A DNA stretch of 32,000 bases from Methylophaga frappieri (GTDB taxonomy: Bacteria > Pseudomonadota > Gammaproteobacteria > Nitrosococcales > Methylophagaceae), in the NCBI RefSeq assembly GCF_000260965.1, contig NC_017856.1, positions 420,001 to 452,000 on the forward strand. Reading direction: 5' to 3'. A program made the translations under genes and the position numbers. Position 1 is the first letter of the stretch. Each line of letters opens with the position of its first letter. Shown here piece by piece: positions 2,717 through 17,017 of the stretch. The notes under the pieces were generated by a model. It searched no databases and was not told the DNA's origin. It saw only the letters and a program-made list of their open reading frames with translations.

Positions 2717-2752
2717 GTGCACCTAAATGTACCTTGATTCATTTAGGTGCAC
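2717..2752. repeat. Perfect 13-bp inverted repeat (hairpin or operator)
   Basis: GTGCACCTAAATG (2717-2729), 10-nt spacer, CATTTAGGTGCAC (2740-2752). There is no flanking T-run on either strand. Confidence 0.5.
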
Positions 2753-2880
2753 GTTCTCAAAATACATATTTTATAACACACTGTTTTTATTGAATTATTT
2801 TTTTGGCACTGATTATGCATTATTTAAATTGTAGTTTTCAGTAGCATGTTGTTCTCTCTCTCTCGCTGCGTGCTGAGCTT

Positions 2881-2912
2881 GGGGTAAATCTTCGGATTTA
2901 CCCCTTTTTTTT
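2881..2912 (+). terminator. Canonical rho-independent terminator, plus strand only, with no annotated gene immediately upstream
   Basis: GGGGTAAATC (2881-2890), TTCG loop, GATTTACCCC (2895-2904), then T x8 (2905-2912). On the minus strand the run precedes the stem, so the element is orientation-specific. Confidence 0.75.
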
Positions 2913-3001
2913 GAGATACACATACTGATTTTGTGATTACAGCAAGGCGGTACGATTATTGCGTTAAGGTAATACAGCCCATTCGGAATACCGTGAATAC
3001 T

Positions 3002-4762
3002 ATGGATGTTACTGCACAGCAAATACAATCATTTCTCACTATGCATCAATTGCCTAGCGAGTATTCGGAACGCATTAAACGGTGGTTTTCTCACCTTGCA
3101 GAAGATTTATTTTCGCACCAAATTAGTGCAAAAAGACCTTTCCTTGTTGGACTGCATGGTGCACAAGGATCGGGCAAAAGCACCTTAGCGGCCTGCCTCG
3201 TCCATCTATTGAAAGAAGTCTGTCAATGCCAAGCTATTACCATCTCACTGGATGACTTTTATCTCACTAAACAACAAAGAGCACAGCTAGGCAACCAAGT
3301 TCATCCCCTTCTCTCGACCCGAGGTGTTCCTGGCACACATGATTTAGCTCTAGCAAAAAAAACATTATTTGCTCTTAAATCTGGACAATTACCCGTTGCA
3401 TTACCTGCCTTTAATAAAGCGATTGATGATCGATATTCAGAAACAGCATGGCAAGTCGTGAACCAACAACCCGACATTATTATTTTTGAGGGATGGTGTC
3501 TTGGGGCAACGCCACAAGCGTTGTCTGAGCTTGAGCAACCAATTAATACCTTGGAATCCACAGAGGATGTCGATGCCACTTGGCGTCGATATGTCAATGA
3601 GCAGCTAGTTGAATATCAAGATCTGTTTCAATTGGTTGATTATTGGCTAATGTTAAAAGCACCCGATTTTGATTGCATCTATGCCTGGCGACGTCAGCAA
3701 GAACAAGCCTTAGCAGCCAGACAAGACGATGACCATGTTGATAACTCGATTATGAATGATGTGGAATTAGCACGCTTTATCCAGTTTTACCAACGCTTAA
3801 CAGAGCATTGCTTAAAAACGTTACCCAATAAAATGCACGCGATTATCGAGCTAGATTCGCAAAGAGAAATTATTCAGATGATTAAACAAACTCCAAACCG
3901 CCCTAATCCACTTTTAATTTTTACTGATTTAGACGGTAGCCTGCTCGACCATCATACTTATCGACATGACGATGCGACCCCCATGCTAGTGAGCCTGGAA
4001 CAACGTGGAATACCCGTTATTCCAGTGAGTAGTAAAACGCGTTCAGAAATCGAACATTTACGATTCGGTTTAAAAAATACACACCCGTTTATCAGCGAAA
4101 ACGGCGCTGCTGTGTTTATCCCAATTGGTTACTTTCCAGAACAACCTGAACAAACGACGATTGAGGGGCACTTCTGGCAAAAGCGGTTCGTCGCGAACCG
4201 ATCGCATTGGCAAGCCATAATTGGTTCAGTTAAATCCGCCTTTTCGGGCGACTACATCAGCTTTAGTGATGCTGGCATTGACGGCATTATGAAATTGACC
4301 GGGCTGGATGTGTATGCGGCCGCCCGCGCTGCTCACCGTGATTTCAGCGAAGTGATTGCCTGGCAAGGCAGCCCCGCCAGACAAAAAGAATTTAGAGATG
4401 CCCTTATTCAAGCCGGTGCGAATGTCTTACAAGGTGGACGTTTTATGCATGTCAGCGGCACTTGCGATAAGGGTCAGGCACTTCGTTGGCTAAGTCAGCA
4501 ATATCAATATTATCTACCTGAAAAAACATGGCAAACACTCGCCATTGGCGACAGTCAAAATGATATTGCCATGCTACAGACAGCTGACATTGGCCTTGTT
4601 ATTCCTTCACCCGTACATGCTCTACCAGAAATACCGAATCAATCCCGGTTATTCGTTGCACCGCAAAGTGGCCCTGCTGGTTGGGCGGCTGGAGTAGCGA
4701 AGATCCTTTCAAACCTTTCCCATTCCACAGCAATGGATGCACAGGAGCTTTCATATGGCTGA
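3002..4762 (+). CDS. Bifunctional fusion protein: GLYK-type D-glycerate 3-kinase (N-terminal) and MpgP/YedP-family HAD phosphatase (C-terminal, probably glucosyl-3-phosphoglycerate phosphatase)
   Basis: Kinase half: P-loop GLHGAQGSGKST, LDDFYLT, RGVPGTHD, IIIFEGWCLG, IYAWRRQQE, as in plant/cyanobacterial glycerate 3-kinase. Phosphatase half starts near nt 3905: LLIFTDLDGSLLD, VIPVSSKTRSE, ISENGA, GDSQNDIAML, collinear with E. coli YedP / mannosyl-3-phosphoglycerate phosphatase. The ORF track begins at GTG 2933; I prefer ATG 3002 (MDVTAQQIQ), but the start is uncertain. Confidence 0.8.
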   Translation: MDVTAQQIQSFLTMHQLPSEYSERIKRWFSHLAEDLFSHQISAKRPFLVGLHGAQGSGKSTLAACLVHLLKEVCQCQAITISLDDFYLTKQQRAQLGNQVHPLLSTRGVPGTHDLALAKKTLFALKSGQLPVALPAFNKAIDDRYSETAWQVVNQQPDIIIFEGWCLGATPQALSELEQPINTLESTEDVDATWRRYVNEQLVEYQDLFQLVDYWLMLKAPDFDCIYAWRRQQEQALAARQDDDHVDNSIMNDVELARFIQFYQRLTEHCLKTLPNKMHAIIELDSQREIIQMIKQTPNRPNPLLIFTDLDGSLLDHHTYRHDDATPMLVSLEQRGIPVIPVSSKTRSEIEHLRFGLKNTHPFISENGAAVFIPIGYFPEQPEQTTIEGHFWQKRFVANRSHWQAIIGSVKSAFSGDYISFSDAGIDGIMKLTGLDVYAAARAAHRDFSEVIAWQGSPARQKEFRDALIQAGANVLQGGRFMHVSGTCDKGQALRWLSQQYQYYLPEKTWQTLAIGDSQNDIAMLQTADIGLVIPSPVHALPEIPNQSRLFVAPQSGPAGWAAGVAKILSNLSHSTAMDAQELSYG

Positions 4763-5978
4763 TTTTCACCAAAATGGCATTATCACTACATTACATAATC
4801 TGACGCACCGGCATCAGGCTGATTTAGAGCAGGATTTATTACGCTTTAGCCAACAACGTCCATTAGGGCTACTACTCCCCTCTTTGTATTCCGAATTGGA
4901 GGGTGCCGCTTTACCAGACATTATTCGGCAATTAAAAACGGTGCCTTATCTGTCGGAAATCGTCATTGGCTTAGACCGAGCAGATAAGTCCCAATATCAA
5001 TCGGCATTGCAATTTTTTGGTGAACTGCCGCAACACCACCGGGTTCTCTGGAATGATGGCCCAAGATTACGCGCAATTGATGCTGAACTTCAGGCACTAG
5101 ATCTGGCACCTCGGGAAGCCGGCAAGGGTCGTAACGTCTGGTATTGCATGGGCTATATTCTTGCGTCAGGTAAGGCTGAGTCAGTCGCATTACATGATTG
5201 CGATATTGTGACCTACAGCACCGAGATGTTGGCAAGACTGATTTATCCCGTTGCAAACCCAACATTTAATTACGAATTTTGCAAAGGCTATTATGCCCGG
5301 GTAGCAGGAGGACGGCTCAATGGTCGGGTAAATCGCCTACTCATCACGCCTTTGCTACGTGCTTTAAAGGCGGTGATGGGATCCAATGACTATTTGGATT
5401 ACATGGATAGCTTCCGATATGCCCTCTCTGGCGAGTTTTCTTTTCGTCGGGATGTGTTGACCGATTTACGTATTCCGAGTGACTGGGGATTAGAAATTGG
5501 TGTGTTATCAGAAATGCACCGGAATTATGCTAATAATCGACTTTGTCAGGTCGATATTGCCGACATTTATGACCATAAACATCAAGACTTATCCGCTGAG
5601 GATCCCAAAGCTGGGCTCTCAAAAATGTCCATTGATATTGCCAAGGCTTTATTTCGCAAACTGGCAACAAAAGGGGTCGTTTTTACCCCTGAGCATTTTC
5701 GCAGTATCAAAGCCAGCTATTATCGTATCGCCCTCGATTTTGTTGAAACGTATCGCAATGATGCGCTGATGAACGGCCTTCGCTTTGATATTCATGAAGA
5801 AGAAGCCTCAGTTGAGACATTTGCCGCCAATATCATGTCTGCGGGTCAGGTATTTTTGGAGAATCCGATGGAAACCCCTTTTATTCCAAGCTGGAGTCGT
5901 GTGCAAAGCGCACTACCCGATATTTTTGAACGTCTTTATGCAGCGGTTGAAGCAGACCACGAGGAATTTTCTGGATGA
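4755..5978 (+). CDS. gpgS: Glucosyl-3-phosphoglycerate synthase-like retaining glycosyltransferase (GpgS; MpgS cannot be excluded)
   Basis: The N-terminal MADFHQNGIITTLHNL motif and the DxD-like HDCDIV are as I recall them for GpgS-type enzymes. AGGAG at 4742-4746 sits 8 nt before ATG 4755, which is why I prefer that start over 4737. The gene overlaps the upstream gene by 8 nt. Confidence 0.75.
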   Translation: MADFHQNGIITTLHNLTHRHQADLEQDLLRFSQQRPLGLLLPSLYSELEGAALPDIIRQLKTVPYLSEIVIGLDRADKSQYQSALQFFGELPQHHRVLWNDGPRLRAIDAELQALDLAPREAGKGRNVWYCMGYILASGKAESVALHDCDIVTYSTEMLARLIYPVANPTFNYEFCKGYYARVAGGRLNGRVNRLLITPLLRALKAVMGSNDYLDYMDSFRYALSGEFSFRRDVLTDLRIPSDWGLEIGVLSEMHRNYANNRLCQVDIADIYDHKHQDLSAEDPKAGLSKMSIDIAKALFRKLATKGVVFTPEHFRSIKASYYRIALDFVETYRNDALMNGLRFDIHEEEASVETFAANIMSAGQVFLENPMETPFIPSWSRVQSALPDIFERLYAAVEADHEEFSG

Positions 5979-7726
5979 ATGTTGCCGAAATTCCGCCACT
6001 CCTCCAGATTTGTCGACAACACCTCAATACGGTTTACAGTGGTATTTTAGAAGAGTCCGAACGTCATCAATTAGCCGATGACTTACTGGAGATCATGCGG
6101 CTGACGGCAGATTGCCCGCTCACACCAGCCGATCAAAACAAGTGGCAAGCTGATGACATCGCCGTCATCACCTACGGCAACAGTATTTTGGCCGAAGGTG
6201 AACCGCCGCTGCAAACCCTAAAACGGTTTGCCGACGACTACTTAAAATCCAGCACAAATACGCTGCATATCCTGCCTTTCTTTCCATTTTGTAGCGATGA
6301 CGGTTTCGCCGTTCAGGATTTTACCGCTGTAAACCCAGCCTTGGGAGACTGGAACGATATTCAAGAACTTGCCAAGGCATGGCGATTAATGGCCGATCTG
6401 GTCATTAATCACGCCTCAACTGAAAGCCAATGGTTTCAAAACTTTATTGCTGGCAGCGGTGAAGGTCATGACTATTTTTATACTGTTTCGGCAGATCAAC
6501 CGGGCCTGGATGCGGTGGTGCGACCTCGTGTCAGTCCGTTGTTAAGGCCGACCGAAACAGCTAACGGTCTGCAACAGGTCTGGTGTACGTTCAGTCATAC
6601 GCAAGCTGATTTGGATTTTCGGCGGCCATCAGTACTGAAAACCTTTGTCCGCATCATACGATTTTATCTCGATCAAGGTATTCGTCTGTTCCGACTGGAT
6701 GCGGTCGCATTTTTGTGGAAACAGGCCGGTACTAATTGTCTCAATTTGCCAGAAACCCACGAAATCGTTCGATTATTGCGTCTGCTGACAGAGCAAGCAC
6801 AACCCGATACCGTGATCATCACGGAAACCAATATCCCTAATCGTGAAAATCTCAGCTATTTTGGTAATGGCAATGAAGCTCATTGGATATACAACTTTTC
6901 TCTGCCGCCACTCTTGTTGAATACGCTAATGACGGGCGAGTGTAATTACCTTCGTCAGTGGTTGATGAGTATGCCGCCTGCCCGTCATGGGACAACCTAT
7001 TTTAATTTTATTGCTTCTCATGATGGTATTGGTTTACGACCGGCTGAGGGGTTACTCACTGATGCGGAGCTTGCAGCCTTAATCAGCACCATGCAAAGTT
7101 TTGGTGGCGAAGTTTCTTGGCGCGCAACGGCCAATGGCATCAAAAAACCTTATGAAATTAATATCGCTTTATTTGATGCGATGCAAGGGACGCTGAAAGG
7201 GCCTGACACATGGCAAATCCCCCGCTTTATATGCGCTCACGGCATCATGCTCGCTTTAGAAGGTATTCCCGCTTTCTATTTACACAGTTTATTAGCCACA
7301 AGTAACGATTATCAGCGCGTTGAAGATAAAGGCCATGCACGTGCAATTAATCGACATCAATGGCAGGACACTCAATTAAGAGACTATCTTGATAGCCCTG
7401 AAAATGTGCATGCACAGGTATATCGGCAATTAACCAGACTGATTCAACTGCGCCGAAAACAACCCGCCTTTCATCCGAATGCAACGCAGTATACGTTGCA
7501 ACTTGGCAGTCACTTATTCGGTTTCTGGCGTCAAAGCCTCTGCCGCCAGCAGAGTATTTTTTGTGTGTTTAATATCACCGATACCACTCAGTCCTTAGCG
7601 GTACATGATCTCAATCTGGTGATTACTGACAGCTGGCGTGATCTGGTCAGCGGTCAAGTCCTTGCCAATCAGCAAGAATCAATTCCACTCGCCCCCTATC
7701 AAATGCTCTGGCTAAGCAATCACTAG
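5975..7726 (+). CDS. GH13 subfamily 18 (sucrose-phosphorylase family) enzyme, a candidate glucosylglycerate phosphorylase
   Basis: Collinear with sucrose phosphorylase: HILPFFPF.SDDGFAVQDF..V.P.LG.W.DI, VINHAS, nucleophile region FRLDAVAF, acid/base ITETN, and ASHDGIG. The start overlaps the gpgS stop as ATGA. Confidence 0.85.
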   Translation: MNVAEIPPLLQICRQHLNTVYSGILEESERHQLADDLLEIMRLTADCPLTPADQNKWQADDIAVITYGNSILAEGEPPLQTLKRFADDYLKSSTNTLHILPFFPFCSDDGFAVQDFTAVNPALGDWNDIQELAKAWRLMADLVINHASTESQWFQNFIAGSGEGHDYFYTVSADQPGLDAVVRPRVSPLLRPTETANGLQQVWCTFSHTQADLDFRRPSVLKTFVRIIRFYLDQGIRLFRLDAVAFLWKQAGTNCLNLPETHEIVRLLRLLTEQAQPDTVIITETNIPNRENLSYFGNGNEAHWIYNFSLPPLLLNTLMTGECNYLRQWLMSMPPARHGTTYFNFIASHDGIGLRPAEGLLTDAELAALISTMQSFGGEVSWRATANGIKKPYEINIALFDAMQGTLKGPDTWQIPRFICAHGIMLALEGIPAFYLHSLLATSNDYQRVEDKGHARAINRHQWQDTQLRDYLDSPENVHAQVYRQLTRLIQLRRKQPAFHPNATQYTLQLGSHLFGFWRQSLCRQQSIFCVFNITDTTQSLAVHDLNLVITDSWRDLVSGQVLANQQESIPLAPYQMLWLSNH

Positions 7727-7796
7727 CTGACGCCAGACGGTAACCATGATAGGTTAACTTTGAACTAATTAAGCTAAATCAACGAGGATAGTTTCC

Positions 7797-8648
7797 ATGA
7801 CTAAAACGGTAAAAATCCGCAAATGTCTCTTCCCGGTTGCCGGTTACGGTACCCGGTTTCTACCTGCGACCAAGGCCATGCCGAAAGAAATGTTGCCTAT
7901 CGTGAATAAACCCTTGATTCAATATGGTGTTGAAGAAGCCATGGAAGCTGATTTATCGCAGATGGGTTTTATTACAGGACGCGGTAAGCGGGCTATCGCA
8001 GACCATTTTGATACCAGCTATGAATTAGAGCATCAGATTCGCGGCACCAGCAAAGAAAAGCACCTTGAAGATATACGTCATGTCATGGATACCTGTGACT
8101 TTATGTTTATTCGCCAGCGGGAAATGCTTGGACTTGGCCATGCCATTTTAAGTGGTGAGCCCATGATCGGCCCTGAAGATTTTGCCGTTATTTTGGCTGA
8201 TGATCTCTGTGCACCGCCGACGGATGGCAGCGAACGTGCACTCAGCCAATTAGTCGACCTCTATGCAAAACAGGGCTGTACCGTTATCGCCATTGAGGAA
8301 GTGCCGCCGGAAAATACGGGGAGTTATGGTGTTATTTCCGGTGAAGAAATTGAACCGGGGGTGTTTCGTGTCACCGATATGGTGGAAAAACCCAAACCCG
8401 AAGATGCGCCGAGCAATTTGGCCATCATCGGACGCTATGTGTTTACAAATGATATCTTTGATTACATTCGGAAGACCCCGCCGGGCGCTAACGGCGAAGT
8501 CCAGATTACCGATGCCTTGAAAGTCATGGCTCAAGAAAAACCTGTGTTGGCGTTGAAGTTTAAGGGACAGCGATTTGACTGTGGCAGTATTGGCGGTTTT
8601 GTTCAAGCCACCAATTATTATTATCAAACCGATTATCTGGATAAGTAA
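7797..8648 (+). CDS. galU: UTP--glucose-1-phosphate uridylyltransferase
   Basis: KCLFPVAGYGTRFLPATKAMPKEMLPIVNKPLIQYGVEEA is the classic GalU N-terminus. Length 283 aa; GAGGA ribosome-binding site upstream. Confidence 0.93.
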   Translation: MTKTVKIRKCLFPVAGYGTRFLPATKAMPKEMLPIVNKPLIQYGVEEAMEADLSQMGFITGRGKRAIADHFDTSYELEHQIRGTSKEKHLEDIRHVMDTCDFMFIRQREMLGLGHAILSGEPMIGPEDFAVILADDLCAPPTDGSERALSQLVDLYAKQGCTVIAIEEVPPENTGSYGVISGEEIEPGVFRVTDMVEKPKPEDAPSNLAIIGRYVFTNDIFDYIRKTPPGANGEVQITDALKVMAQEKPVLALKFKGQRFDCGSIGGFVQATNYYYQTDYLDK

Positions 8649-9271: not shown

Positions 9272-9379
9272 ATGTTAAAAAAACTTGATAAATTTTTGAT
9301 TGAAAAGTTTCCTCATATTATTTTGACCTTTACCGTGTTCTGGTTATCGCTGGTCGCTTGGGGACTGTTTAATTCCTAA
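9272..9379 (+). CDS. Possible 35-aa single-pass membrane peptide
   Basis: Below the ORF-track cutoff, found by eye: MLKKLDKFLIEKFPHIILTFTVFWLSLVAWGLFNS. GAGG lies 8 nt upstream of the ATG, the C-terminal half is hydrophobic, and a terminator-like hairpin follows directly. Confidence 0.3.
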   Translation: MLKKLDKFLIEKFPHIILTFTVFWLSLVAWGLFNS

Positions 9380-9403: not shown

Positions 9404-9431
9404 AAAAAAACCGGTTTTTACCGGTTTTTTT
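9404..9431 (+). terminator. A/T-flanked CCGG hairpin, a likely (bidirectional) terminator ending the glucosylglycerate operon
   Basis: AAAAAAACCGG (9404-9414), loop TTTTTA, CCGGTTTTTTT (9421-9431). Confidence 0.5.
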
Positions 9432-9650: not shown

Positions 9651-11378
9651 ATGAATCCATTGGAACAGCATCAACTTGCTTTGTCACTAAATTTACCTGA
9701 GACCATCATGGCCAGCCGGTTAGCACAATGGTTATCCACTGGGGGCTTTCAATACCCAGCTGATGAGGATCTTTTTCAGATCAATCGTGAGAACGTCTCG
9801 CAGCAGCACCAGTTATTGCTGAAAGCATGGCTTTTATTTCATCAAAATTTATTAATCGATGCGGGTATCCCCGCGTTTAAAAGTGCAGAAATTGATCAAA
9901 TCGAATATCAAGAAAATGGTCGATTAAGAATAACGATTAGCCTGTTTTCCTTCATCGAATTCCGAAACCTTTTCGTCAATGCCTTATCGCAATGCTTCAC
10001 TTTTATTTTAAAAATGAATGCGACACCTTATTCGCTTGAGGCATTTGACGATCTTGGCAAACGCGTTGAACAACAACTCTATCAGCCACTAAAAAAGGTC
10101 AGTAATGCGGGCTTATCGAATATTCCCATTCTTCAATACGCCTATGAACACCATATCCCTATGCAATATTTTGGTGCCGGTTTGTATCAATTAGGTTGGG
10201 GAGCGAACGCACATTGGTTGAAAGCCAGTAGCACGGAAGAAGATAGTGCAATTGGGGCTAAATTAAGCGGCTATAAACATTTTAGTGCTCAACGGCTAAA
10301 AAGTTTAGGCCTCCCCGCCGCACAGAATGCGTTGGTAAAAACCATTGAACAAGCAGCCGAGTTCGCTGATGAAATTGGCTACCCTGTCGTCGTTAAGCCA
10401 GAACAAGGCAATCGCGGAGAAGGCGTGGTCAAAGATATCACTACGGTGACTCAGCTCAAGCGAGCATTTGAATATAGCAAAAGCTTTAATGAACTAGTCT
10501 TAATCGAAAAACAGGTCACAGGATCTTGTTACCGGTTTTTTGTCTATAAAAACGACGTTATTTACATTAACGGTAATCTGCCAAGAAAGCTTGTCGGCAA
10601 TGGTGAAGCCAATATCGCTGAACTGATTGAAGCCGACACCCGTTATCAAATGACTCGAAAACACTGGCAACGCGACCCCACTATCCCACTTGATACAGAA
10701 ACGCACGATTGTCTCCGTGACCAGAATTTAACCTTGCAAAGTGTGCCTGAGAAGCATCAATCCATCGCGATTCGAAAAATCGGCTCAATGCAATGGGGTA
10801 CTGAGGATGCACCTGCCGTTTGTGATGCTCACCGCGATAATATCGCACTTGCCATTGCGGCGGCAAAAGCCATGAATTTAGCAACGGCGGGGGTAGATAT
10901 GATTATTGAGGATGTGACGCGCTCTTGGCTTGAACAGACGGTTATCGTCAATGAAATCAACTCTTCACCAATGATCGGCGTGAGTAAAGCCTCACTTGAT
11001 GCGCTACCCAAACTGATGCGGTTAATGTTGCCTAATCAGGGGCGTATTCCTGTCACCGTATTTTTAGGAAAAGAGGCCGCATTTGACGCAGCCAGAAAGG
11101 CACAGCAAGCAGCGATAGAAAACAATATTGCCTGCTATCTAACCTCACATCAAACGACGCTCTCCCCAGATCAAAACAGCACCCCAATGACCTTTGAAAC
11201 CGTGTCTCAGCGTGTTAACGCGCTTATGCAGATGCCTAGCGTAGCCGCTTTGATTATCGTGGTTGAGTCCGATTCAGTACTAGAAGAGAAATGGCCAGTT
11301 GACCAGATCGATGAGTTAGTCGTAGTGGATAACGTAAATCAGGCTGTTGAGGATTTTTTTCGGTCACTGTGTAGATGA
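9651..11378 (+). CDS. Cyanophycin-synthetase-like ATP-grasp ligase: CphA-type N domain plus G domain, with a truncated and degenerate M (Mur-ligase-like) remnant
   Basis: ATP-grasp motifs YPVVVKPEQGNRGEGV, VLIEKQVTGSCYRFFV and VIVNEINSSPMIG. The preceding segment (IPILQYAYEHHIPMQYFGAGLYQLGWGANAHWLKASSTEEDSAIGAKLSGYKHFSAQRLKSLGLPAAQ) is collinear with the CphA N/G junction. After the grasp domain, GRIPVTVFLGKEAAF occupies the position of the CphA/Mur P-loop (RIPI.AVTGTNGKTT), and only about 110 aa follow. Confidence 0.75.
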   Translation: MNPLEQHQLALSLNLPETIMASRLAQWLSTGGFQYPADEDLFQINRENVSQQHQLLLKAWLLFHQNLLIDAGIPAFKSAEIDQIEYQENGRLRITISLFSFIEFRNLFVNALSQCFTFILKMNATPYSLEAFDDLGKRVEQQLYQPLKKVSNAGLSNIPILQYAYEHHIPMQYFGAGLYQLGWGANAHWLKASSTEEDSAIGAKLSGYKHFSAQRLKSLGLPAAQNALVKTIEQAAEFADEIGYPVVVKPEQGNRGEGVVKDITTVTQLKRAFEYSKSFNELVLIEKQVTGSCYRFFVYKNDVIYINGNLPRKLVGNGEANIAELIEADTRYQMTRKHWQRDPTIPLDTETHDCLRDQNLTLQSVPEKHQSIAIRKIGSMQWGTEDAPAVCDAHRDNIALAIAAAKAMNLATAGVDMIIEDVTRSWLEQTVIVNEINSSPMIGVSKASLDALPKLMRLMLPNQGRIPVTVFLGKEAAFDAARKAQQAAIENNIACYLTSHQTTLSPDQNSTPMTFETVSQRVNALMQMPSVAALIIVVESDSVLEEKWPVDQIDELVVVDNVNQAVEDFFRSLCR

Positions 11379-12880
11379 CTATGTCGCTCAATTTTTCGCT
11401 CGAAGACAGTCAACGTTTCGTCACCGAGGTCTTGGATCATTACGCAATAACCCAGCCCGATACCATTGCGATTGAAAATGACAACCTTGCTATCAGCTAT
11501 CAGAAACTTAAACAATTAGTGAATGATTGGCAACAAGCACTTGAACAAGCCAATTTACCCAAAGGTCTCTGTATCGGCTTGCGTTTCCACAGTCAAATTG
11601 GCCATCTAATTTGTCACCTTGCTTTACTTAAGCAAAATATCACGCAGGTGATAATCGACCCCCACGATCCCGTCCAACTTCAACAAAATACCGTGATGAC
11701 GTTGGCTATTGACCTGATCCTGCAAGAAACCGCTGAAAACCAACAACAACTTGGTTGTGCCATTCATTCAATTGAAAGCTTGCCCGATAGTCCGCAGTTT
11801 CAAGTTAGCGCAAAGCCCTATTCTCAGGATAGCGTGCTGGTGTTCAGTGGTTCTGGTACCACCTCAAGCCCCAAACATTTTGCTTTTACCTCGACGCAAT
11901 ATGCTGCCATGCTAAAACGCGGTTTAGATGCATGGGTGATAAAGAATCAAGAACGTTACTTTTGCTACTCTCGACTCAACTTTGTTTTTCCACAAAGACA
12001 GGCCTTGTTGTGCTTATCCGTCGGGGCATGCCTTGTTTTATCGGCTAAGCCGATACCAGACCTCATTCAATTTGTCAGAAAACGTCAGGTCGAACATTTG
12101 CTATTGACCGCGAATCAGGCACAGCAGTTTATACTTAACAGCCCCAGCTTAAAAACACCAACTGAAGATCTCGTCCTACCGCATTTAAAAAGTCTGCAGC
12201 TATCCAGCTCGTTAATCAAACAACGTTTACGTAGCACCATAATGGCAAAAGTGACACAACAGCTTTACATTCTTTACGGTGCAAATGAGTTCGGCATTAT
12301 TTCTATGGCCTACCCCGAACAAGTTGCTAACCAGCCAGGAACTGTTGGCGAGGTGCTGCCCAACGTGACCGTGCAAATCATGCATGATGGGGAAAAAACA
12401 TCTCAGCCGGGTGCAATCAGAGTAACAGGTGCGAATATGATCCAGGGCTATGTGGCCGATCCCACAGCAAGCCAAAAAAGCTTTCCAGATGGCGAGTGCT
12501 ATCTGCCAAACGACACAGGATTTTTTACAGCGGATGGCCAATTAATCATTGAAGGTCGAAGCGATGATGCCATCCTTTACACTGGTGTAAATCTCTATCC
12601 AAGGGCACTGGAAGAAGTTCTGGAAGCTCACCCCGCGGTGACAGAAGCCGCGGTCTTTCCCATTTCATTGCCAGATCAGGATGACATCCCCGTTGCTGCG
12701 GTTGAGGTGAACCAGCCCATTGAAGTCAAACTACTGTTAAGTTTTTGTCAAAATCAATTAGGCTGGAAGCGGCCCCAACATATTTTCATCATTGATCAAC
12801 TGCCACGAAATCGCGCTGGCAAGGTGTTGAAAAGACAATTAAAAGAGATGGTTGAGTCAAAGATTCGAGTTCGATCTTAA
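11375..12880 (+). CDS. Stand-alone adenylate-forming enzyme (ANL superfamily: acyl/aminoacyl-AMP ligase)
   Basis: Core motifs: FSGSGTTSSPKHF (divergent A3 P-loop), YGANEFG (A5), LPNDTGFFTADGQLIIEGRSDD (A7/A8), PRNRAGKVLKRQL (A10 lysine). The start overlaps the upstream stop as ATGA. No carrier-protein, condensation or thioesterase gene is nearby. Confidence 0.8.
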   Translation: MTMSLNFSLEDSQRFVTEVLDHYAITQPDTIAIENDNLAISYQKLKQLVNDWQQALEQANLPKGLCIGLRFHSQIGHLICHLALLKQNITQVIIDPHDPVQLQQNTVMTLAIDLILQETAENQQQLGCAIHSIESLPDSPQFQVSAKPYSQDSVLVFSGSGTTSSPKHFAFTSTQYAAMLKRGLDAWVIKNQERYFCYSRLNFVFPQRQALLCLSVGACLVLSAKPIPDLIQFVRKRQVEHLLLTANQAQQFILNSPSLKTPTEDLVLPHLKSLQLSSSLIKQRLRSTIMAKVTQQLYILYGANEFGIISMAYPEQVANQPGTVGEVLPNVTVQIMHDGEKTSQPGAIRVTGANMIQGYVADPTASQKSFPDGECYLPNDTGFFTADGQLIIEGRSDDAILYTGVNLYPRALEEVLEAHPAVTEAAVFPISLPDQDDIPVAAVEVNQPIEVKLLLSFCQNQLGWKRPQHIFIIDQLPRNRAGKVLKRQLKEMVESKIRVRS

Positions 12881-14352: not shown

Positions 14353-14946
14353 TTACTTTTGTTGCCAGCTGCCACCTTGCTGATACCACCAGCCCTGTGC
14401 CGCATTACTCACCCAGCGTCTGGCAAAAGTTTCTTGAATATCACTTTGCCACTCCGGGTGTCCATTAGCTCGGGCTATTTCCGCATAAAGGGCGTTTCTA
14501 TCCTGATTTTCAGCGGCAATTAAGCCATTGATGGTATTACGATCTTTCAAGGCCACGGCTTTTGCATCACGCAACGTAATGAGGCCATCTTGTGTTAACC
14601 CTATCGCGCCACTGTGATAAAACGGTTCTAATTGCGCGTGTCTTGCCTTCATTTTGTCTTGAAGCGCGGTAATCGCAGGAGAGTTAATATTAATGTCAGC
14701 TTGCGCCATTGCCGGTGAAACCAGCCAATTCAGCATTTTCATGGCCACTGGCATAGTCGAAGCTGATGAGGATGACGGACTTAGGGGCGGCTCAACAGCC
14801 TGACCGGGCTGTTTTCCCCAGACATCTTCGATAATCCGATCGGCGGCTTCTTCAGCGGCGGCGGCCGGGAAATAAATATTAATGGTGACACAGGATGCCA
14901 GCAATAAAGCCAGCATACTACTCGAATAAGCGCGTAATCTTTGCAT
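14353..14946 (-). CDS. ydbL: YdbL-like (DUF1318) protein with an N-terminal lipoprotein extension
   Basis: The C-terminal half (AIGLTQDGLITLRD...ENQDRNALYAEIARANG...WVSNAAQGWWYQQGGSWQQK) matches my recollection of DUF1318/YdbL. The N-terminus has a lipobox, LLLASC (Cys19). Confidence 0.65.
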   Translation of the reverse strand: MQRLRAYSSSMLALLLASCVTINIYFPAAAAEEAADRIIEDVWGKQPGQAVEPPLSPSSSSASTMPVAMKMLNWLVSPAMAQADININSPAITALQDKMKARHAQLEPFYHSGAIGLTQDGLITLRDAKAVALKDRNTINGLIAAENQDRNALYAEIARANGHPEWQSDIQETFARRWVSNAAQGWWYQQGGSWQQK

Positions 14947-14956
14947 CGTTACATCC

Positions 14957-17017
14957 TTACTGAATCACAGGTCCTTCACTATTACGAACCGCCTGTAGAC
15001 GATTCAACAAATCCGGCCAATCCACCTGCCGGGTAAAACCACGAACATTAATCCACGGCGGTAAGCCCCCCGCTTTGACAATATAATACCCTTGTTCGTC
15101 TGTTTCGACGCCGTTCATTTTACAAACCTGATTTTGTAAACGACAGCTTAAACCCAGTTTTTCATAGGAAAAGTCTTCAAATACGCTTAGAAAACTCCGT
15201 GATAATGCGCCACTGGCCCCGCCACCAATCTGAGTCAGATTATCGACCGCACGCTGAGATATTCGACGCTTTCCAGGGTTGGACTCTGGTGTCATCAAAG
15301 CGGCATCAAAAGCGACGGGTTGCCAGTCTGACAAACGCAAATCATGAACATAACCAGCCAGTCTCCCAGTAATACGCCCAAATTCGAATACTTGCGTGAT
15401 CATTTCCAGATCAAGCTGCTGAAAATCAATATTCGCCGTTAATTGTGGCAAACTGCCAAAAGGGGACTGAAGCCGTAAATCCCGAATAATCGTCCGGCCA
15501 TCAAACACATTCACCTGCAGCGCGCCATCAACCTCTATTTGCTGGTTCGCATAGCGCACCTCAGGAATCACGCCAGCCAATTTACCTTGCATTTCAGGCC
15601 AGCCTAGCGCGGTTGTCAAGGGTGCCATTGATATCGGAGTCAATTCACCTGAAAATTGCCAATGATTTTGCTGCGTAGATTGATCGTAAACAAAGTGGTC
15701 AATTTGCAGCGCGCCATCAAATAGCGGTAAGACCAAGGGCGATGTTAACTGAATTTCTTGGTTGCTCACGATGGCTGATAGTTGACTTTCCCCTATCGGG
15801 ATCGGCCCGATAGCCGCACTTTGCCAACGCAACTCTACTGGCGATAATTGACCTGTATTTTGCCAGCCAACCTGCCCAGACAGACTTTGCATAGCAAATC
15901 TGTCCTGCTTATCCTGTATATCAAGGTCATCTAATTGAGCCGCAATCTCAATCTGTTCGGGTTGCCATTGCACTTTTCCTGAAATAGCACCATCCAGTTC
16001 TAACTGTCCAGCAGCACTTCCCGTTAGAAAAGGTTGTATCCACCATTGATAAAGCGCCGCTAAATTCAAGCTTTGCCAATCCATCTCGGCATCAATCAAG
16101 GCATTATCTTGAAAACCCAGCTGCCCCGCCACGGTTAAAACGTCCTGCTGCAGGACATTCACTTCTGCAGAATTAATCTCTTTGGCAGCAAAATCAAACA
16201 TGGTATTGCTACTTAAGGATAACGGCGCTTCAGAAAAATCCAAAAACACGGGCGCAAAATAGGTCTGTCCTTCAGATAACATCAGGTCAGTTTGAATCTG
16301 TAACTTGGTGTCCGTGGTTTCCGTTGCATCCATTTCAAGTTGAAATACCAATGCCTCACCGACTTGATTACCGCTTTCATCACTAAAATGAACGGATTCC
16401 CCGTTGAGCTGCATGTCCAATGCAAGCAGTCTCGTCTCTTGGCCTTGTATGGCCGCTTGTAACTTAACTGTTCCAGAAGGCTGCCAGCGCTTCACCGTTT
16501 CGACAATATCAGGAACAAGCCCTTGCGCCATGTCTAAGACTGCCGCAATTCCAATTTCGTCCCCAACAAGATTCAGTTGCCATTGACCTGCTTGTGATTG
16601 AACATCAACATCAACCCTGCCATTACCGATACGAATCGCTTTCAGGTTAATGTCGTAGTGCTGTGCAGCGAGATTAAAGCTAAAATCACTGCTAAGTTTT
16701 TGCACGCCTAAGACAGTATGCTCAAATGCCAAATCGCCATTATCACAGTGCCAATACTCTGCGGCGTAACGCCAATTTGCACAGTTTAAGGCGAGATTTT
16801 TAAGCGATTGTCCGGCGAGTTGTAATTGGTCCAGTTCAACCTGTAATAATAAACGCTGATCAACGATTTCAAAGCCGACTGAGAGACCTTGCAGACTGCC
16901 TTCAGGCAAAGCCAGAGATTCAAGTTGTATTTGAATAGTATCAATCGCTTTAGCTGGCAAAGCGCTTAAGCCCAGCAATAAAATGACGCTCAGAAGTCGG
17001 CACAGACCTGACGTCAT
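14957..17017 (-). CDS. ydbH: YdbH-like AsmA-family protein (putative intermembrane lipid-transfer bridge)
   Basis: 686 aa with a signal/anchor N-terminus and a long repetitive beta-rich body. The C-terminal block ISQRAVDNLTQIGGG...GYYIVKAGGLPPWINVRGF resembles the DctA-YdbH domain. It sits directly upstream of the ydbL homologue, as in the E. coli ydbH-ynbE-ydbL operon. Confidence 0.65.
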   Translation of the reverse strand: MTSGLCRLLSVILLLGLSALPAKAIDTIQIQLESLALPEGSLQGLSVGFEIVDQRLLLQVELDQLQLAGQSLKNLALNCANWRYAAEYWHCDNGDLAFEHTVLGVQKLSSDFSFNLAAQHYDINLKAIRIGNGRVDVDVQSQAGQWQLNLVGDEIGIAAVLDMAQGLVPDIVETVKRWQPSGTVKLQAAIQGQETRLLALDMQLNGESVHFSDESGNQVGEALVFQLEMDATETTDTKLQIQTDLMLSEGQTYFAPVFLDFSEAPLSLSSNTMFDFAAKEINSAEVNVLQQDVLTVAGQLGFQDNALIDAEMDWQSLNLAALYQWWIQPFLTGSAAGQLELDGAISGKVQWQPEQIEIAAQLDDLDIQDKQDRFAMQSLSGQVGWQNTGQLSPVELRWQSAAIGPIPIGESQLSAIVSNQEIQLTSPLVLPLFDGALQIDHFVYDQSTQQNHWQFSGELTPISMAPLTTALGWPEMQGKLAGVIPEVRYANQQIEVDGALQVNVFDGRTIIRDLRLQSPFGSLPQLTANIDFQQLDLEMITQVFEFGRITGRLAGYVHDLRLSDWQPVAFDAALMTPESNPGKRRISQRAVDNLTQIGGGASGALSRSFLSVFEDFSYEKLGLSCRLQNQVCKMNGVETDEQGYYIVKAGGLPPWINVRGFTRQVDWPDLLNRLQAVRNSEGPVIQ

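Follow-up and report, generated by a model that had tools for sequence, protein, structure and literature searches.

A putative glucosylglycerate operon of Methylophaga with synthesis and recycling arms behind a conserved sigma-54-type promoter

Known glucosylglycerate systems and the Methylophaga locus

Gene clusters for the solute glucosylglycerate (GG) that contain a glucosylglycerate phosphorylase (GGaP) were reportedly described by Franceus, Pinel and Desmet in 2017 (reviewed in PMC7178133). We have analysed a locus of this kind in a 32,000-nt stretch of the Methylophaga frappieri genome (contig NC_017856.1, positions 420,001 to 452,000), called the window below. Between positions 3002 and 8648 of the window, the open reading frames (ORFs) give four co-directional genes in the order fusion (D-glycerate 3-kinase, GLYK, joined to the phosphatase GpgP), glucosyl-3-phosphoglycerate synthase (GpgS), GH13_18 phosphorylase and galU. 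These four adjacent genes and their families had been proposed in an initial annotation made from the DNA letters, and family models, structure matches and the ORFs bear them out. We regard it as highly probable that the locus is the GG operon of Methylophaga, with a synthesis arm and a recycling arm, a sigma-54-type start and a balance set at the enzyme level.

GGaP was found because its gene is associated with those of a glycerate kinase, GpgS and GpgP, and the enzyme has been proposed to regulate GG levels (PMC7178133; PMC11009771). In those clusters, as in ours, a GH13_18 GGaP with a TETN motif and a loop-A Glu is encoded beside the genes of a glycerate kinase, GpgS and GpgP, and the proposed role is the same, namely control or retrieval of the GG pool. 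Our locus differs in that the kinase is of the P-loop GLYK type and fused to GpgP, in the sigma-54-type promoter that precedes the genes, and in the housekeeping galU, the degenerate GGDEF gene and the 35-aa peptide gene that follow them. A GG operon of Prochlorococcus is drawn with recycling to glucose-1-phosphate and 3-phosphoglycerate (bioRxiv 10.1101/2024.05.01.591941), so that genes for GG synthesis and recycling are co-located in one operon there too. It differs from ours by a putative transporter gene immediately adjacent and, according to the figure legend, by ADP-glucose as donor. GG is linked there to nitrogen-poor conditions (Klahn et al. 2010, via bioRxiv 10.1101/2024.05.01.591941).

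Two further systems share single features with the locus. In the glucosylglycerol system of Marinobacter, a synthase gene also lies beside that of a GH13_18 phosphorylase for the same solute, a fusion is found in the synthesis arm, and the glucosylglycerol phosphorylase (GGoP) is inhibited by rising salt, which gives a precedent for an enzyme-level switch (PMC10873239). However, the solute is another one, the loop-A motif VGAIYQ of that phosphorylase (structure 7xdq) is absent from the GGaP described here, and the Marinobacter fusion joins two synthetic steps, whereas ours joins a synthetic and a salvage step. In the ycjM-ycjV operon of E. coli, YcjM is a characterised GGaP that is 37% identical to ours and has both GGaP fingerprints in common with it, but this operon is purely catabolic and includes an ABC transporter, with neither GpgS nor GpgP.

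The idea of a loop of synthesis and recycling is thus sound but already in the literature (PMC7178133; bioRxiv 10.1101/2024.05.01.591941). What the locus adds is the fusion and its breadth, the conserved sigma-54-type promoter and the Methylophaga-specific neighbours. Our literature search found nothing specific on GG in Methylophaga and no paper describing the kinase-phosphatase fusion, the 2017 GGaP paper lying outside the literature searched. The features of the locus are collected in Table 1.

Table 1. Features of the glucosylglycerate locus, in window positions
Feature	Position	Strand	Remarks
Candidate enhancer, inverted repeat	2717-2760	+	GCACC and GGTGC; 45-90 nt before the promoter of the small RNA (sRNA)-like transcript
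Upstream element, ~120 nt	2796-2915	+	promoter and sRNA-like transcript
sRNA sigma-54-type promoter	2804-2819	+	TGGCAC-N5-ATGCA; conserved
sRNA-like transcript, ~83 nt	2830-2912	+	5' end inferred from the promoter
Operon sigma-54-type promoter	2948-2965	+	CGGTACGATTATTGCGTT; dinucleotides GG 2949-2950 and GC 2961-2962
Fusion gene, 586 aa	3002-4762	+	ATG 3002; N-terminal P-loop D-glycerate 3-kinase (GLYK type), C-terminal HAD-IIB GpgP (predicted)
gpgS, 407 aa	4755-5978	+	ATG 4755; full-length match to NF040724
GH13_18 phosphorylase gene (GGaP), 583 aa	5975-7726	+	TETN and PYEIN motifs, likeness to YcjM
Extended -10-like element	7747-7755	+	TGaTAGGTT; in the GGaP-galU spacer, candidate promoter for galU alone
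galU, 283 aa	7797-8648	+	ATG 7797; UTP-glucose-1-phosphate uridylyltransferase, TIGR01099 match
Stand-alone degenerate GGDEF-domain protein, 173 aa	8679-9200	+	178 aa if the start is TTG 8664
35-aa hydrophobic peptide gene	9272-9379	+	MLKKLDKFL...; between the GGDEF-like gene and the terminator
Terminator-like 12-bp hairpin	9404-9431	+	closes the cluster; -15.1 kcal/mol, z -4.1

Enzymes of the predicted cycle and their conservation

The core of the locus is widely conserved. The kinase-phosphatase fusion has 529 detected homologues, and its relatives occur in at least 503 stretches of a one-genome-per-species collection. Synteny was counted in the best 80 loci of these relatives, all from other species. 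In every locus with a whole fusion and at least 3.2 kb of downstream DNA (56 of 56), GpgS and then GGaP follow, so the arrangement is not due to chance. The trio is found in Methylophaga, Alteromonas, Pseudoalteromonas, Marinobacter, Colwellia, Zhongshania, Paraglaciecola, Halieaceae and others, and eleven further loci of the 80 combine an unfused phosphatase with GpgS and GGaP. By its gene content and order, the fusion-GpgS-GGaP trio is a conserved, putative make-and-retrieve module of marine Gammaproteobacteria. Within the genus, a natural deletion variant was met in one 76%-complete genome (G017; locus L092, G017:C266, 8164-10414), in which the DNA from just past the upstream sRNA-like element to about codon 474 of the fusion is missing and a C-terminal remnant of ~100 codons stays. 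The remainder of this incomplete assembly yielded no GGaP.

The N-terminal half of the fusion (residues 1-293) has the GLYK structures 7xpc (E 2.5e-22) and 6ckg (E 2.1e-21) as its best solved matches, with uridine and pantothenate kinase structures scoring far below them. Together with a P-loop of the form GxxGxGK(S/T) and a DDFY block, this places it among the class III GLYK enzymes, the plant/cyanobacterial type. We take its product to be 3-phosphoglycerate rather than 2-phosphoglycerate, as in the rest of the family. Residues 294-586 match YedP (1xvi) and structures of mannosyl-3-phosphoglycerate phosphatase (MpgP), and score 206.9 against TIGR01486, the HAD-IIB MPGP subfamily, above its cut-off of 164.75. 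An alignment of 14 diverse homologues (A1) shows no variation in the Walker A loop, in the DDFY motif or in the core residues of HAD motifs I-IV (DLDGSLL, SSKT, the catalytic Lys and GDSQND).

A profile search of the whole genome (100% complete; 2,697,465 + 47,825 bp) found no class I or class II glycerate kinase (PF02595, PF05161), and the GLYK domain is present in a single copy. The fused kinase is thus the sole glycerate kinase candidate and the only apparent means of turning glycerate into phosphoglycerate, in keeping with a dedicated salvage role.

The synthase aligns with NF040724 (GpgS_Meth) over positions 2-402 of 402 (E 7e-109) and weakly matches mycobacterial GpgS structures. It has no Pfam match at the default threshold, and its only NCBIfam matches are two GpgS models. 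As no match to the mannosyl-3-phosphoglycerate synthase (MpgS) family was found, the transferase does not appear to belong to the mannosyl enzymes that the initial annotation had named as a possible misreading. Orthologues of the protein show 68-89% identity, and their genes follow the fusion gene in every case. The sugar donor is likely UDP-glucose, in view of the adjacent galU.

The third gene encodes a GH13_18-like protein with an amylosucrase-type C-terminal domain, and was assigned by motif tests and bit-score contrasts. Its RLDAVAF, TETN and SHDGIG blocks align with the corresponding blocks of GH13_18 structures and of YcjM, and presumably hold the nucleophile Asp, the acid/base Glu and the transition-state Asp established for GH13 enzymes. 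GGaP is distinguished by (T/S)ETN at the tip of beta-strand 5, where the acid/base residue stands, and by a Glu in loop A (PMC7178133); elsewhere the two fingerprints are given as TETN and PYELN (PMC10608839). In other clades the loop-A Glu is replaced by Gln. In our protein, ITETN aligns with ITETN of YcjM, a position at which the non-GGaP GH13_18 structures differ. PYEIN is identical in YcjM and aligns to YQVN in 7qqi and to AIYQL in glucosylglycerol phosphorylase 7xdq. Moreover, the match to E. coli YcjM runs over the full length with 392 bits, against at most 172 bits for the best non-GGaP GH13 structures, 7xdq included. The acceptor-residue comparison that the initial annotation had proposed thus points to a GGaP-type enzyme (EC 2.4.1.352), which would be expected to phosphorolyse strictly 2-O-alpha-D-glucosyl-D-glycerate and to leave sucrose untouched, and not to one of sucrose or glucosylglycerol type. 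A second GH13 gene of the genome, outside the window (G000:C1:237759-239270, in a 653-aa ORF), is 30% identical to this GGaP and likely encodes an amylosucrase- or TreS-type enzyme of a sucrose pathway.

On these assignments the five reactions that the initial annotation had joined into a closed loop do close on paper, since every enzyme they need survives tests at the sequence level. GpgS would form glucosyl-3-phosphoglycerate from an NDP-glucose (nucleoside diphosphate glucose) and 3-phosphoglycerate, and the HAD half of the fusion would dephosphorylate it to GG. GGaP would split GG with phosphate into glucose-1-phosphate and D-glycerate. Of these, the first would be converted back to UDP-glucose by GalU and the second to 3-phosphoglycerate by the GLYK half of the fusion. 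Each turn would cost one ATP and one UTP (to UDP and pyrophosphate). Since both arms would be co-expressed, we infer that the size of the GG pool is set by a balance at the enzyme level, with an enzyme-level switch and a net flux in the direction drawn. The brake on futile cycling would most likely be inhibition of the phosphorylase by salt, by analogy with glucosylglycerol phosphorylase. The post-transcriptional switch that the initial annotation called for is likewise presumptive.

The junctions of the genes, as read directly, are those noted before: an 8-nt overlap, an ATGA overlap and a 70-nt gap before galU. The fusion start is placed at its ATG by the orthologue N-termini, which begin at the same residue in alignment A1. 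The gpgS start lies within the last codons of the fusion gene (ATGGCTGA), 8 nt behind an AGGAG Shine-Dalgarno site; the longest ORF would begin at 4737, and the orthologues and the NF040724 match favour 4755. The ATGA overlap occupies 5975-5978, with GAGGA 9 nt before the GGaP start, and another GAGGA stands 8 nt before the galU ATG, so that genes 2-4 all have good Shine-Dalgarno sites. The gap from galU to the GGDEF-like gene, given earlier as 16 nt, is 15 nt to TTG 8664, and 30 nt to the ATG from which ten orthologues align.

Predicted promoters and transcription units

When the DNA upstream of the fusion gene is aligned, two conserved blocks appear. The block next to the operon, CGGTAYGA-N4-TTGCRT, is invariant in 28 of 28 genus genomes, apart from CTGCAT in four of them, while the surrounding DNA has diverged. 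It begins 54 nt before the fusion ATG in the window, with similar distances in the other genomes of the genus, and its geometry (GG-N10-GC with TTGC as the -12 block) is that of sigma-54 promoters. In other families of marine Gammaproteobacteria, 25 of 68 loci have a motif of the same type within the 200 nt before the fusion, whereas only 1.8% of random 200-nt windows contain one; the nominal p-value of this contrast overstates the case because kin are not independent. Marinobacter, Zhongshania, Halieaceae, Reinekea and Catenovulum are among the lineages with the motif. Pseudoalteromonas has a TGGTCTAC-type variant, and no such motif was found upstream of the fusion in Alteromonas.

A scan for sigma-70 consensus sites gave fewer hits than shuffled sequence and nothing of use. 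The genome encodes one rpoN and six strong enhancer-binding proteins. The features expected of a sigma-54 promoter (GG and GC 10 nt apart, a sequence of the TGGCAC-N5-TTGCW type, conservation, and rpoN with activators) are all in place, and transcription of the operon most likely starts at this predicted promoter with the help of an activator.

The second block is an element with a sigma-54-type promoter and an sRNA-like transcript of its own. In the promoter, TGGCAY-N5-ATGCW, the GCA of the -24 part and the TGC of the -12 part are invariant in 25 of 25 genomes (A2) and the flanks vary. The transcript would carry an invariant stem 1 with a CU-rich apical loop, a terminator hairpin (2881-2904; -16.2 kcal/mol, z -3.5) with compensatory changes at 5 pairs of its stem, and a U8 tract. 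Of 37 genus genomes, 31 have a single copy of the element, and wherever both it and the fusion can be placed, it lies before the fusion on the same strand. It matches no Rfam family (the best hit, AniS, has 17 bits and E 2.8).

We considered whether this element could be the switch of the cycle by pairing with the start regions of the operon. When duplexes of the CU-rich loop region with 5305 start regions of the genome are compared by energy, the idea finds no support: GpgS, GGaP, galU and the GGDEF-like gene rank between 2246 and 4802, and the fusion start reaches -12.8 kcal/mol against a genome mean of -17.2. A role as cis-acting leader or attenuator is unlikely in general, since in one clade a cation-efflux gene stands between the element and the operon. 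This is seen in locus L112, where the gene, of the CDF type, occupies 1647-2576 and the operon sigma-54-type motif still abuts the fusion.

Ahead of the element, GTGCA-type repeats are kept at the position of the candidate enhancer in 20 genus genomes. A GCACC-N5-GGTGC site also precedes the genome's own glnA sigma-54 promoter, next to which lies a gene for a glnA-linked activator. The shared pentamers suggest that the enhancer is possibly a site for NtrC, and a nitrogen-limitation signal through NtrC is our leading guess for the activation of the operon. The repeats are overlapped by orf102 (2485-2793, 102 aa), which is probably not a gene, having neither a family nor an orthologue in any relative and overlapping conserved upstream sites.

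Whether the sigma-54-type promoter serves all four genes as one unit is less settled. GalU matches TIGR01099 over its full length (381.6; cut-off 326.8), no second galU was found in the genome, and of the 29 genus genomes in which the gene was detected, this one included, 26 have one copy. Because it is the sole copy, galU must also serve envelope synthesis; it is a housekeeping gene sharing the locus and not a dedicated recycling enzyme. In the GGaP-galU spacer, the extended -10-like element is part of a motif, CATGnTAnnTT, that is kept in 9 genus genomes while the remaining spacer diverges. It is probably a promoter for galU itself, which would keep the gene expressed when the sigma-54 promoter is off, and the "one operon" may be two overlapping transcription units.

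In its stronger form, this view holds that galU, the GGDEF-like gene and the 35-aa peptide gene make up a housekeeping unit with its own promoter that abuts the GG genes, and that the chemical fit of GalU to the loop is incidental, any cell needing the enzyme. The single-copy state of galU and the conserved element in the spacer speak for it, as does the deletion variant G017, where the GG genes are lost and yet galU, the GGDEF-like gene and the peptide gene are kept after the fusion remnant. Moreover, galU follows GGaP in Methylophaga only, in 2 of the 68 loci holding GpgS and GGaP. On the other side, GGaP adjoins galU in 9 of 9 genus loci that reach upstream of galU, each with the order GGaP-galU-GGDEF-like, and by coordinates also in G006, and the 70-nt spacer holds no terminator-like fold, folding no better than shuffles. 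Read-through from the sigma-54 promoter would also boost the supply of UDP-glucose at the very time of synthase induction. Three genus genomes have another galU at a distance of a few kb, which would be expected if the copy in the operon is able to specialise. On balance we judge the separate housekeeping unit a strong contender whose standing falls slightly short of even.

The three genomes with a second galU are G009, G044 and G046, whose copies lie 3-9 kb apart. In the Methylophaga locus L001, two galU copies occupy 5834-6664 and 14775-15614, of which one follows GGaP and the other precedes the fusion by ~4 kb. The pattern resembles a duplication, by which the copy in the operon might be released for a dedicated role.

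Downstream of galU, the GGDEF-like protein scores 39.9 against Pfam GGDEF (cut-off 23.8). In an alignment with the GGEEF of solved cyclases it has NRNMI in place of GG(D/E)EF, and its orthologues have NRKKI, SRKKI or NRKQ(I/V), so that the protein has the family fold and lacks the motif of active enzymes; it is predicted not to be a cyclase. RxxD at the canonical I-site spacing is kept in the protein and in all ten orthologues. Among 400 sampled Gammaproteobacteria, orthologues were found in this genus only, and the gene directly follows galU in 9 of 9 loci examined. The 35-aa peptide is better conserved than the GGDEF-like gene, with identities of 71-83% to its counterparts in six genus relatives, which occupy the same position, and matches no family in Pfam or NCBIfam. 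None of 200 shuffles folds as well as the terminator-like hairpin behind it. Beyond this terminator, the window holds a separate unit (9651-12880) of a cyanophycin-synthetase-like ATP-grasp gene and an ANL adenylating-enzyme gene with an ATGA-type overlap.

Alternative readings and what the locus would mean

Several points weigh against a GG operon of the kind proposed. The top-scoring models for the phosphatase half are those named mannosyl-3-phosphoglycerate phosphatase, and in this family glucosyl and mannosyl substrates cannot be told apart from sequence. GpgS scores 364 bits against the NF040724 equivalog cut-off of 700, so that the protein appears as a homologue with the same architecture that falls outside the narrow equivalog (Methanococcoides type). 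One-mismatch sigma-54-like matches occur in the window at the chance rate and the motif by itself is not rare; the case for the promoter lies in its conservation, among kin that are not independent. The position of galU, as the sole copy, is weak evidence for a dedicated role. Finally, ectoine is the osmolyte reported for Methylophaga (PMC1224877), and ectC is present in the genome, so GG would be a secondary solute. GG accumulation and the enzyme specificities in this organism are predictions from the genes.

A bolder version of the GG operon would gate the cycle by nitrogen: an NtrC-type activator would fire two tandem sigma-54 promoters, that of the sRNA and that of the operon, and the degenerate GGDEF protein would be a cyclic di-GMP (c-di-GMP) receptor that partitions UDP-glucose. 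If true, the receptor would split UDP-glucose between GG and envelope or exopolysaccharide synthesis and would supply, at the enzyme level, the switch that the initial annotation predicted. We consider this combination unlikely as a whole.

Quite improbable is a mainly catabolic cluster, in which GG taken up from cyanobacteria would be consumed and GGaP and GLYK would feed glycolysis, as in the ycjM operon. It is true that YcjM adjoins an ABC transporter in a catabolic operon of E. coli, and that an exchange of GG between Prochlorococcus and heterotrophs has been proposed (bioRxiv 10.1101/2024.05.01.591941). However, the neighbours of our cluster are EttA, an unsupported ORF and the ATP-grasp/ANL enzyme pair, with no transporter gene in or beside it, and the purely synthetic GpgS and GpgP show translational coupling to GGaP and are conserved together with it in 56 of 56 loci.

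GGaP could also act synthetically in vivo and make GG in one step from glucose-1-phosphate and glycerate, as a second, cheaper route and not as recycling, given that its reaction is reversible and has been used for synthesis in vitro (PMC11009771). We find this very improbable, since consumption of glycerate by the fused kinase suggests that flux leads away from it, and the cluster encodes no glycerate-producing enzyme. Besides, cellular phosphate is normally far above glucose-1-phosphate. The least probable reading, mannosylglycerate or another glycosylglycerate as product, with transferase and phosphatase acting on mannosyl substrates and a different substrate for the GH13 enzyme, could draw on the phosphatase model names and on the sub-cut-off GpgS score, but it is opposed by a transferase that matches GpgS models only, by both GGaP fingerprints and the full-length YcjM likeness of the GH13_18 enzyme, and by the adjacent galU, which belongs to glucose chemistry.

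The GG operon with two arms therefore stays our preferred reading. It extends current views and overturns none. GG is a nitrogen-free anionic solute for times of nitrogen scarcity, and the setting and retrieval of its pool are called unverified in reviews. Hundreds of marine Gammaproteobacteria have a salvage kinase fused to the enzyme of the last synthetic step, which implies, in the manner of a Rosetta stone, that synthesis and phosphorolytic recycling work as a unit. As by-products, the analysis yields two candidates: a new sRNA under sigma-54 control and a receptor in the form of the degenerate GGDEF protein.

In summary, the conserved sigma-54-type promoter, with possible NtrC-like sites, offers a regulatory handle that would tie the pathway mechanistically to nitrogen limitation, and such control, possibly by NtrC, would fit the reported link of GG to nitrogen-poor conditions. 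The organism is also a compact and culturable marine methylotroph in which to test how futile cycling between the two arms may be avoided.

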